From positions 53,516-117,515 of the IMG/VR virus record IMGVR_UViG_3300036828_000767: a stretch of 64,000 nt of DNA; one strand, given 5' to 3'. The notes beneath the pieces are model-generated. The model had not been told where the DNA came from, did no database searches, and saw nothing but the letters and a program-made list of their open reading frames with translations. Position numbers and translations under genes: made by a program. The stretch is from a virus (lineage: Duplodnaviria; Heunggongvirae; Uroviricota; Caudoviricetes). This document shows, piece by piece, positions 9,190-9,660 of the stretch (the stretch's first letter is position 1; every line of letters begins with the position of its first letter).

Positions 9190-9660
9190 GACCCCACCCC
9201 CCTGTGTTACCCCGCCTTGTTCGAATGCGTGTTCGGTTGCCGTGGTCGGCGCCGTCGCCGGTCGAACGGGCATTCGAGTGCGAACGTTTGTTCGAAGGGC
9301 AGGGGCATACGCGGATGCGCTCGAACAGGCGTGCTATCGCTCATGTGTTCGACAGGCGCTGTGCCGGCGTCGCAGCGCTGGAACAGGCATTCGAGTTGTC
9401 GGTGTTCGAATGCAGCAAGGACAAATTCGAACAGCGACGCTGTGACCTGCGACGATGCGAGGTCGTTAACATTGCTAACGAGATGATCATTGTTCCTTTG
9501 TTCGAATCAGCGCGCTGACCTGCGACGGAGCGGAATGTGACGCAGATCACAGGGAAAACTTAGACATCTAATCGTACATTTCACCTGTTCGAAAAACCAC
9601 GTCTGACCTGCGATGATGCCACTAGACTGTTCGAATTAGGTCGTCTACGCTGCTGATACT
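9190..9660. promoter_or_regulatory. iteron/operator-like cluster: about 12 copies of TGTTCGAA / TCGAACA half-sites plus 3 copies of TGACCTGCGA(C/T)G; lower-GC noncoding region
   Basis: Repeated motifs read directly; no credible ORF (ORF 9204..9518 is the translated repeat). Confidence 0.5.

Follow-up and report, generated by a model that had tools for sequence, protein, structure and literature searches.

Genomic setting of the repeat region

What purpose is served by the short repeats that crowd a noncoding stretch (positions 9190–9660) of an IMG/VR virus record? The question was approached on 64,000 nucleotides of that record, referred to below as the window. An earlier note on this DNA had counted about twelve TTCGAA-centred sites in the stretch and had proposed that they are iterons or operators. 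All strings that it quoted are present in place, and a number of about twelve is reached when seven exact TTCGAA are counted together with one-off variants (TTCGAG or TTCGAC at 9273, 9348 and 9390; TCGAAC at 9262 and 9321). The motifs are also enriched over background: seven of the nine exact copies of TGTTCGAA in the window (both strands, 64 kb) fall within 9218–9635, and shuffled sequences contained 1.27 copies on average and 6 at most, versus the 9 observed. Exact TTCGAA occurs 27 times in the window, 7 of these within the repeat region. The three spaced copies of TGACCTGCGAYG that had been reported (9443, 9516 and 9604) are all that the window contains, versus 0.03 in shuffles. The repeats are real, highly non-random and conserved. 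Three features described below go beyond the earlier note, namely dyads of the SOS-box type, the pairing of both motifs into bipartite units and, at 9136–9202, a conserved junction element.

The window has a G+C content of about 65%, and all its predicted genes are on the + strand. Its proteins match 60 phage protein families, including WhiB, Erf, an RlaP-type nucleotidyltransferase, a Mom-like protein and HNH endonucleases. Integrase, terminase, repressor and partition genes were each absent from the listed Pfam and PHROG matches of the window proteins (for PHROG, 25 of the 60 families). A ParR/ParB-type partition centromere was considered and rejected, as no parA/parM-parB/parR genes adjoin the region among the matches listed. 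The gene of an RHH-like protein (2637–2948) lies 6 kb from the repeats. Among cultured phages, those of Gordonia and Mycobacterium come closest (about 52% identity, one protein); no nucleotide match to deposited phages or plasmids was found by BLAST, and searching region 9190–9660 against the phage and plasmid collections gave no match either. From the family matches, the closest relatives and the absent nucleotide match, the window appears to be an early-type region of a large uncultured actinobacteriophage.

Codon-usage gene calling left a gap without genes from 7747 to the ATG at 9750 and gave no coding signal for the repeat region, in agreement with its description as noncoding. The double terminator placed upstream by the earlier note was recovered as two intrinsic terminators (9041–9082 and 9096–9135) that fold better than shuffled sequences. 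Terminator 1 (9041–9082, + strand) has a 14-bp G+C-rich stem and a U-run (−29.8 kcal/mol, z = −5.4, 0 of 200 shuffles as stable) and is predicted to end the upstream transcription unit. Terminator 2 (9093–9135, + strand) has its hairpin and U-run at 9096–9135 (−17.2 kcal/mol, z = −3.4); its 5′ stem arm (9093–9104), TCACCTGCGGCG, is a copy of the second motif with one mismatch and is aligned with TGACCTGCGGCGACGCC in a sister phage, L001. The lower G+C content that had been ascribed to the whole region holds for the right half (0.49–0.56 over 9300–9700, versus 0.62–0.73 in the flanks) and fails for the left half, 9190–9400, where it is 0.63.

The first gene of the downstream operon, which is long and runs rightward (9750–10211 for this gene, + strand), is preceded by an AAGGAG ribosome-binding site (9738–9743) and has a tblastn match in L001. 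It encodes a small N-terminal domain followed by a Lys/Ala/Ser/Thr-rich, histone-H1-like tail, and in a database of 5.8 billion proteins its homologues form one cluster only. A link to the upstream IS110-like gene was dropped: the protein has no relatives in any fetched locus and the gene is missing from L001. No match to known RNA families (Rfam) was obtained in 7000–10500. Because two terminators lie just upstream and all genes are on the + strand, the promoter for the genes from 9750 must lie in the gap.

An array of SOS-box-like dyads

The first part of the region (9221–9410) contains six 16-bp dyads within 174 bp (9221–9394) that have at most two mismatches to TCGAAC-N4-GTTCGA, whereas chance would give about 2.2 such dyads over all 64 kb; this SOS-box consensus is that of the LexA proteins of M. 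tuberculosis and S. venezuelae (PMC3381160, PMC9380542). N4 is the preferred spacing of convergent half-site pairs, with four pairs versus two or fewer at any other spacing. Dyad 1, TCGAATGCGTGTTCGG (9221–9236), has two mismatches. Boxes 2 and 3, TCGAACGGGCATTCGA and GCGAACGTTTGTTCGA (9262–9295), have one mismatch each and are separated by 2 bp, and boxes 4 and 5, TCGAACAGGCGTGCTA and TCGCTCATGTGTTCGA (9321–9352), have two mismatches each and abut. Box 6, TGGAACAGGCATTCGA, again has two mismatches and is followed by a lone perfect half-site TGTTCGAA at 9403–9410 (9379–9410 together). The array is organized in three modules of 58–59 bp, consisting of the boxes at 9262 and 9280, those at 9321 and 9337, and the box at 9379 with the lone half-site at 9403. 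In L001, the counterpart of box 3 is a perfect TCGAACGCTTGTTCGA and that of box 4 is TCGAACAGACGTGCGA.

In M. tuberculosis, experiments have established TCGAAC-N4-GTTCGA as the LexA operator, and no more than 24 sites with 0–1 mismatch occur in the 4.4-Mb genome of this bacterium (PMC3381160); LexA of S. venezuelae recognises the same motif (PMC9380542). The exact consensus, the density of the dyads, the N4 preference and the conservation make LexA, or a protein with LexA specificity, the likely occupant of this part. The chromosomal SOS boxes of the two bacteria have the same 16-bp consensus (PMC3381160, PMC9380542), and one bound site in M. tuberculosis consists of three boxes with more than one mismatch each (PMC3381160). 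Chromosomal genes usually have one or two boxes, whereas here a dense phage array is followed by half-sites coupled to TGACCTGCG.

LexA-repressed phage promoters with several SOS boxes have a precedent in phage GIL01 (PMC4551915). The P1 region of GIL01 resembles the present locus in its clustered LexA operators within a phage control region, in weak or non-canonical boxes beside good ones and in hints of a helper factor (PMC4551915, PMC6182141). It differs in that the present array has six dyads in three paired modules and, next to them, a separate bipartite unit with a LexA-like half-site; moreover, no gp7-like helper was identified and no lysogeny genes were seen here.

Bipartite units and a predicted promoter

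The second part of the region (9426–9635) holds three same-strand copies, within 9426–9615, of a bipartite unit, TGTTCGAA-N9-11-TGACCTGCGAYG. Unit M1 (9426–9454, + strand) reads TTCGAACA-N9-TGACCTGCGACG, with 11 nt from TTCGAA to TGACC, and is kept in L001. M2 (9499–9527, + strand; TGTTCGAA-N9-TGACCTGCGACG) and M3 (9586–9615, + strand; TGTTCGAA-N10-TGACCTGCGATG) were delineated by motif counts and the L001 alignment. An imperfect palindrome, GTTAACATTGCTAAC (9465–9479), is conserved as GTTAACGTTGCTAAC in L001 and holds a −10-like TAACAT. A perfect palindrome, TGTGA-N6-TCACA (9536–9551), lies within a 35-bp block, TGTGACGTAGATCATAGGGAAAGCTTAGAC, that is conserved in L001, and we take it to match a CRP/GlxR-type consensus. 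An arm-type repeat of pSAM2 (GTCACGCAG...) may resemble 9537–9553; this likeness was left out of the evidence.

Successive starts of TGACCTGC are separated by 73 and 88 bp in the window, and the corresponding distances in L001 are 63 and 87 bp. Since the indel between the two sequences is 10 bp, the helical phase of the units is preserved, as would be expected for interacting DNA-bound proteins. The TGTTCGAA of the unit is a lone half-site that forms no dyad, and LexA alone thus does not explain this part of the region; such a half-site is unlikely to act as a LexA site by itself.

Across more than 20 instances of the bipartite unit, no −10 or −35 hexamer was found at a constant distance, which argues that the units are not themselves promoters; a sigma-70 or ECF promoter was rejected on this account and because the internal spacing of the unit is too short. 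A promoter scan tuned to E. coli gave no match on the + strand. Candidate −10 elements were predicted purely by match to consensus at 9646–9662 (+ strand), namely TACGCT (9646–9651) and an extended −10, TGaTACTCT (9654–9662); in L001 the TACGCT is kept and is accompanied by TGaTATGCT. These best candidates lie 250 bp downstream of the dyads, and the predicted promoter is overlapped only by the last, lone TGTTCGAA (9628–9635, + strand), which is part of the conserved string TGTTCGAATTAGGTC and is placed at about −37 relative to the predicted start of transcription.

Several other origins of the unit were examined and discarded. An RNA hairpin of TGACCTGC with the downstream GCAGATCA has no covariation support in L001. 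Terminal inverted repeats of an insertion sequence do not fit, as the window copies are direct and contig ends lie 45–65 nt outside the unit. Derivation of TGTTCGAA from a tRNA or a tRNA-like sequence was rejected because ARAGORN and a T-arm scan were negative in and near the region. A search for the motifs in the literature returned word matches limited to primers and unrelated papers.

Conservation in a sister phage and the upstream junction element

L001 (an IMG/VR contig) and two metagenome contigs, L170 and L217, have a homologous region that likewise precedes the H1-like gene. Overall identity to the sister-phage region is 76%, and the footprints that survive are the junction core, SOS boxes 3 and 4, the three bipartite units, both palindromes and the −10 region. 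Conservation between the window and L001 is strongest at 9128–9168, which includes a purine block, GGAGAGAGAAATCG (9136–9149, + strand), of which the same 14 nt are present in L001 and L104. The block is followed by the junction core (9152–9202, + strand; L001 alignment), consisting of CGACTGAGGTGGGTCGC, an inverted repeat GGTGGGTCGC-N19-GCGACCCCACC and a C-run CCCCACCCCCC. CGACTGAGGTGGGTCGC is identical in L001 at 17 of 17 positions, and L104 has a parallel layout, GGGGCC-N13-GGCCCC and then CCCCCCTGTTCGAA. The 17-mer GACTGAGGTGGGTCGC matched L001 and, in viral contigs, two coding sequences by coincidence. The junction core folds weakly better than shuffles (z = −1.2). Neither ARAGORN nor Rfam detected a tRNA at 9136–9202, and the purine block lacks a T-arm fold.

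In L106 and L108, whose loci are whole contigs, the purine block lies 2–5 nt from the contig end; in L096 it lies equally close to the end of the locus, which is shorter than the contig, and this is probably a contig end as well. That L106, L108 and probably L096 stop just after the block suggests a physical DNA end.

Occurrence of the bipartite unit in other elements

Scanning for the pattern showed that unrelated viral contigs of high G+C content, and metagenomes as well, also contain the unit. The carriers span 55–74% G+C, and the unit is conserved to the base. BLAST gave no match of the unit among 50,697 deposited phage records and 72,556 plasmids. Most matches of the strict pattern in genome collections were dismissed as chance occurrences inside genes, and the chance matches in the metagenome scan included what look like conserved nuoC- and ppc-type coding motifs. 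Clusters of the half-site TTCGAACA are present in other carriers (ten in about 350 bp of L104, six in L096), and SOS boxes lie beside the unit in L207 (TCGAACAGGTGTTCGA, perfect) and L092 (GCGAACAGGCGTTCGA, one mismatch).

The genes next to the unit are often those of DNA packaging or lysis. In L108, L093 and L159 the order is TerS-TerL-unit-block, with an HNH endonuclease on the far side; the families in L108 and L159 are PF23931 (TerS), PF03354 (TerL) and PF01844 (HNH). The unit of L104 has TerL and portal genes adjacent, the adjacent ORF being similar to TerL of the L108 lineage and having no Pfam match of its own. The neighbours in L084 are a capsid gene and the gene of a multi-HTH protein that weakly matches Terminase_5 (E 1.5e-4), and in L155 an endolysin is located just upstream. 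The unit of L092 lies between recombination genes and a DnaB helicase gene, the latter preceded by an ORF without identification. Units in inverted orientation occur on both sides of the purine block in L159, and the orientation of the unit and its side relative to the block differ between elements. It is antisense to the flanking genes in L104 and L092, and elsewhere it points into tRNA fragments.

In about 8 of the roughly 25 non-coding metagenome matches the unit abuts a tRNA 3′ fragment, and in three genome matches it is 25–60 nt from a tRNA-like fragment. In L116 it begins 45 nt after a tyrosine integrase gene. An adjacent integrase or a tRNA 3′ core, as is characteristic of attP, was seen only in L116, L219, L039 and L025, and in 10 other loci Rfam detected nothing beside the unit except ordinary tRNAs. 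All-against-all BLASTP of the ORFs within 4 kb of the unit yielded TerL, in two lineages, as the only shared neighbour protein, and the small-terminase families differ among carriers. The lack of a common neighbour family beyond TerL, the differing small terminases and the conservation at the level of single bases favour a host factor as the binder of the unit.

Interpretation of the repeat region

We tentatively prefer to read the locus as a multi-operator, probably SOS-responsive control region at the start of the operon and possibly at a genome end. Host LexA dimers would occupy the paired boxes cooperatively, and a putative second factor, probably host-encoded, would bind the bipartite units on one face of the helix. 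Jointly, LexA and this factor would keep the rightward promoter or promoters closed, the last TGTTCGAA being placed over the −35 zone of the extended −10 promoter. Upon DNA damage, RecA-stimulated self-cleavage of LexA would open the promoters. Of the two functions raised in the earlier note, the operator-like one is supported by the six N4-spaced LexA-consensus dyads and the three phased, conserved bipartite units, and the present analysis specifies it as SOS boxes accompanied by a new bipartite element; an origin with iterons finds no support. With neither an integrase nor a repressor among the listed window matches, the phage has no evident reason to sense the SOS response, which speaks against the SOS reading. 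Against the operator reading stand the surroundings of the unit elsewhere, i.e., terminase, HNH endonuclease and lysin genes, contig ends and tRNA fragments. Given these contexts, a packaging or recombination junction fits at least as well as an operator.

In such a junction the repeats would be sites for a packaging or recombination complex rather than for transcription control, and we regard this as possible, if doubtful. The locus could then be a cos at which terminase and a DNA-bending host protein use cosB-like sites, or else an attP that has arm sites; cutting or crossover would take place at the purine block and inverted repeat (9136–9202). The contigs that end 2–5 nt past the shared block (L106, L108, probably L096), the peak of window-versus-L001 conservation at 9128–9168, the packaging, capsid and lysis neighbours in L108/L093/L159, L104, L084 and L155, and the inverted units that flank the block in L159 all argue for a module of this kind. 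However, within the roughly 9 kb upstream and 55 kb downstream there is no terminase or integrase gene in the window or L001, no HNH gene is near the site, and the assemblies of the window, L001, L170 and L217 (four of four in the lineage) read through the purine block. The unit varies between elements in orientation and in the side of the block on which it lies, which also counts against the junction; the different small-terminase families make terminase unlikely as the common binder, the block has neither a T-arm fold nor a tRNA by ARAGORN or Rfam, and this reading gives no reason why the dyads match the LexA consensus. The lambda cos region comprises cosN, the R sites of cosB and a host IHF site. 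The present locus is similar in that repeated binding sites are found no more than a few hundred bp away from what is probably a genome end, with a symmetric element at the presumed cut, and a host-factor site common to different phages would parallel IHF; it differs in that no terminase genes are near, the end is deduced only from the contig ends of other elements, and the orientation of the sites is not fixed. Arm sites of attP are roughly 10 bp long. The unit is bipartite and 27–29 bp long, the window has no integrase (among the matches listed) and no tRNA-like core, and LexA dyads are not a feature of attP. On the other hand, the direct repeats resemble arm sites, and the unit abuts tRNA 3′ fragments in about 8 of some 25 non-coding metagenome matches and once, in L116, follows a tyrosine integrase, a position beside integrase or tRNA that is the attP position of actinomycete integrative elements (PMC2440964). 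The control-region and junction readings are compatible, as early control regions often adjoin genome ends.

The remaining explanations account for less of the data. An origin of replication, with the bipartite units as iterons for a phage initiator and the lower-G+C segment 9460–9600 as the unwinding element, is improbable. Like iteron origins, the locus has direct repeats (three, of about 28 bp) beside a dip in G+C, here to 0.49; the unit of L092 has recombination genes on one side and a DnaB helicase gene on the other, a frequent location of phage origins, and that of L207 is flanked by two perfect DnaA boxes. Yet no DnaA box (with up to one mismatch) was detected in 9000–9800 or in nine of the ten other carrier regions checked, genes for an initiator, helicase or primase do not adjoin the region in the window or L001, the units are spaced unequally (73 and 88 bp) and much more widely than the repeats of typical iteron arrays, and most other carriers, L092 being the exception, have the unit beside packaging or lysis genes. 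A sink for LexA, in which the array on the replicating phage genome would titrate the host protein and so switch on the host SOS regulon, might account for at least six dyads in 174 bp, far beyond the need of one promoter, and for the retention of the array in the sister phage. We consider it highly improbable, as the sites lie exactly where the promoter must be and the bipartite units would be unexplained, and we know of no precedent for such a sink. Equally remote is the idea that the three units are tandem early promoters, comparable to A1–A3 of T7, read by host RNA polymerase or an alternative sigma factor. The same-strand units are suitably located, 135–325 bp upstream of the first gene and about 275–450 bp from the possible genome end, (T)TGACC is like a −35 hexamer and TGC-GAYGAT is, in some copies, like an extended −10. 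But in at least 20 instances no TAnnnT occurs at a constant 16–19 bp from TTGACC, the TTCGAA–TGACC spacing of 9–11 bp is too short for a −35/−10 pair, GAYGAT is lost outside the window lineage, and the unit is antisense in L104 and L092 and points into tRNA fragments.

Implications for actinobacterial mobile elements

Taken more widely, TGTTCGAA-N8-11-TGACCTGCG might be the site of a conserved actinobacterial host factor that unrelated phages, satellites and integrative elements recruit at genome ends, att sites and early promoters, in a role like that of IHF; we rate this as rather unlikely. To our knowledge, no sequence-specific equivalent of IHF has been described in the actinobacterial phylum. 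The putative factor may act together with LexA, and the bipartite element, the purine block and the SOS boxes would then form a portable junction module. If LexA truly occupies the array, the locus would rank as an SOS operator of unusual density and modular build in an actinobacterial phage, and it would provide direct access to the way such phages sense damage to host DNA. The unit itself marks boundaries of mobile DNA, i.e., contig ends, terminase and lysis modules and tRNA fragments. It could serve as a simple sequence marker for the ends of mobile elements, and naming its binder could reveal a host factor general to the mobile elements of actinobacteria.

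The non-coding region and its neighbourhood

A non-coding array of ~2.4 kb, composed of ~42-nt units (ACGGCGGGCCTGCCCAA..ACGACAGCCAG..), lies at window 6690-9020, upstream of the region. Tandem Repeats Finder assigned it a super-period of 162. Its strand is strongly skewed (A>T), and it is broken up by a gene for a 288-aa protein (6881-7747), which matched a PHROG 'transposase' family (E 8.5e-10); no match for its product was obtained in Pfam. The array itself had no match in Rfam, the ~42-nt unit was not present in the sister phage (L001), and the exact 17-mer was without a true match in IMG/VR.

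The first gene after the region (window 9750-10211) encodes a small N-terminal domain followed by a histone-H1-like tail of Lys/Ala/Ser/Thr repeats. It is found at the same position in the sister phage, and a search of 5.8 billion proteins returned homologues from one cluster only. The predicted 5' leader of this gene holds a long inverted repeat (CACGCGCGG...CCGCGCGTG; window 9671-9732) with an inner hairpin, GGGAGTCC/GGGACTC. The leader in L001 is much shorter and the inverted repeat is not present there.

Other features of the window and the sister phage

The gene for the RlaP-type nucleotidyltransferase specifies 520 aa in L001 (2449-4011) versus 262 aa in the window (1631-2419). Because homology between the two is split into two separate blocks, the sequences suggest that the L001 gene carries an intein or other insertion. 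A pair of paralogous genes, 48 kb apart (window 4108-4767 and 52224-52850), may account for the two phrog_25883 matches. Elsewhere, two amidoligase-like genes and two that resemble class-II glutamine amidotransferases are clustered at window 34834-39496.

Three further gaps of 1.6-2.8 kb (window 21035-23881, 45088-46894 and 59389-60977) are devoid of confidently called genes on the + strand, and none of them contains TGTTCGAA clusters. GC skew is positive in the 21035-23881 gap, in contrast to its surroundings; genes on the minus strand, or else a further non-coding feature, may occupy this gap. Two perfect hairpins resembling the T-arm of tRNA, GCGGG-ttcgaac-CCCGC and GCAGG-ttcgagt-CCTGT, are located at window 63291 and 63544. 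ARAGORN made no tRNA call for either; the hairpins might represent fragments of tRNAs or an attP-like core.

The bipartite unit in other loci

In ten other loci (metagenome loci L116, L176, L179, L198, L201, L212, L219 and L223, and genome loci L025 and L039) the bipartite unit adjoins tRNA genes or tRNA 3' fragments, with a spacing of 0-1 nt if these are on one side of it and 25-60 nt if they are on the opposite side. A gene for a tyrosine integrase precedes the unit in L116. Conservation extends over another ~70 nt upstream of the unit in L176, L198 and L201, and this stretch includes a GCCAC-TCAG-GTGGC hairpin.

L207 is the only carrier of the unit with DnaA boxes. Its two perfect boxes, TTGTCCACA and TTATCCACA (at about 1223 and 1332), enclose a double TGTTCGAA and the bipartite unit. 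At most 250 bp away are a perfect SOS box and the purine block, the latter in reverse orientation.

L005 and L108/L093/L159 are small viral contigs of high G+C with a compact gene set (protease-capsid fusion, portal, TerS and TerL), which is divergent and adjoins the bipartite unit. In L005, a small ORF also adjoins the region. Rather than full phages, these contigs might represent capsid-forming, satellite-like elements.
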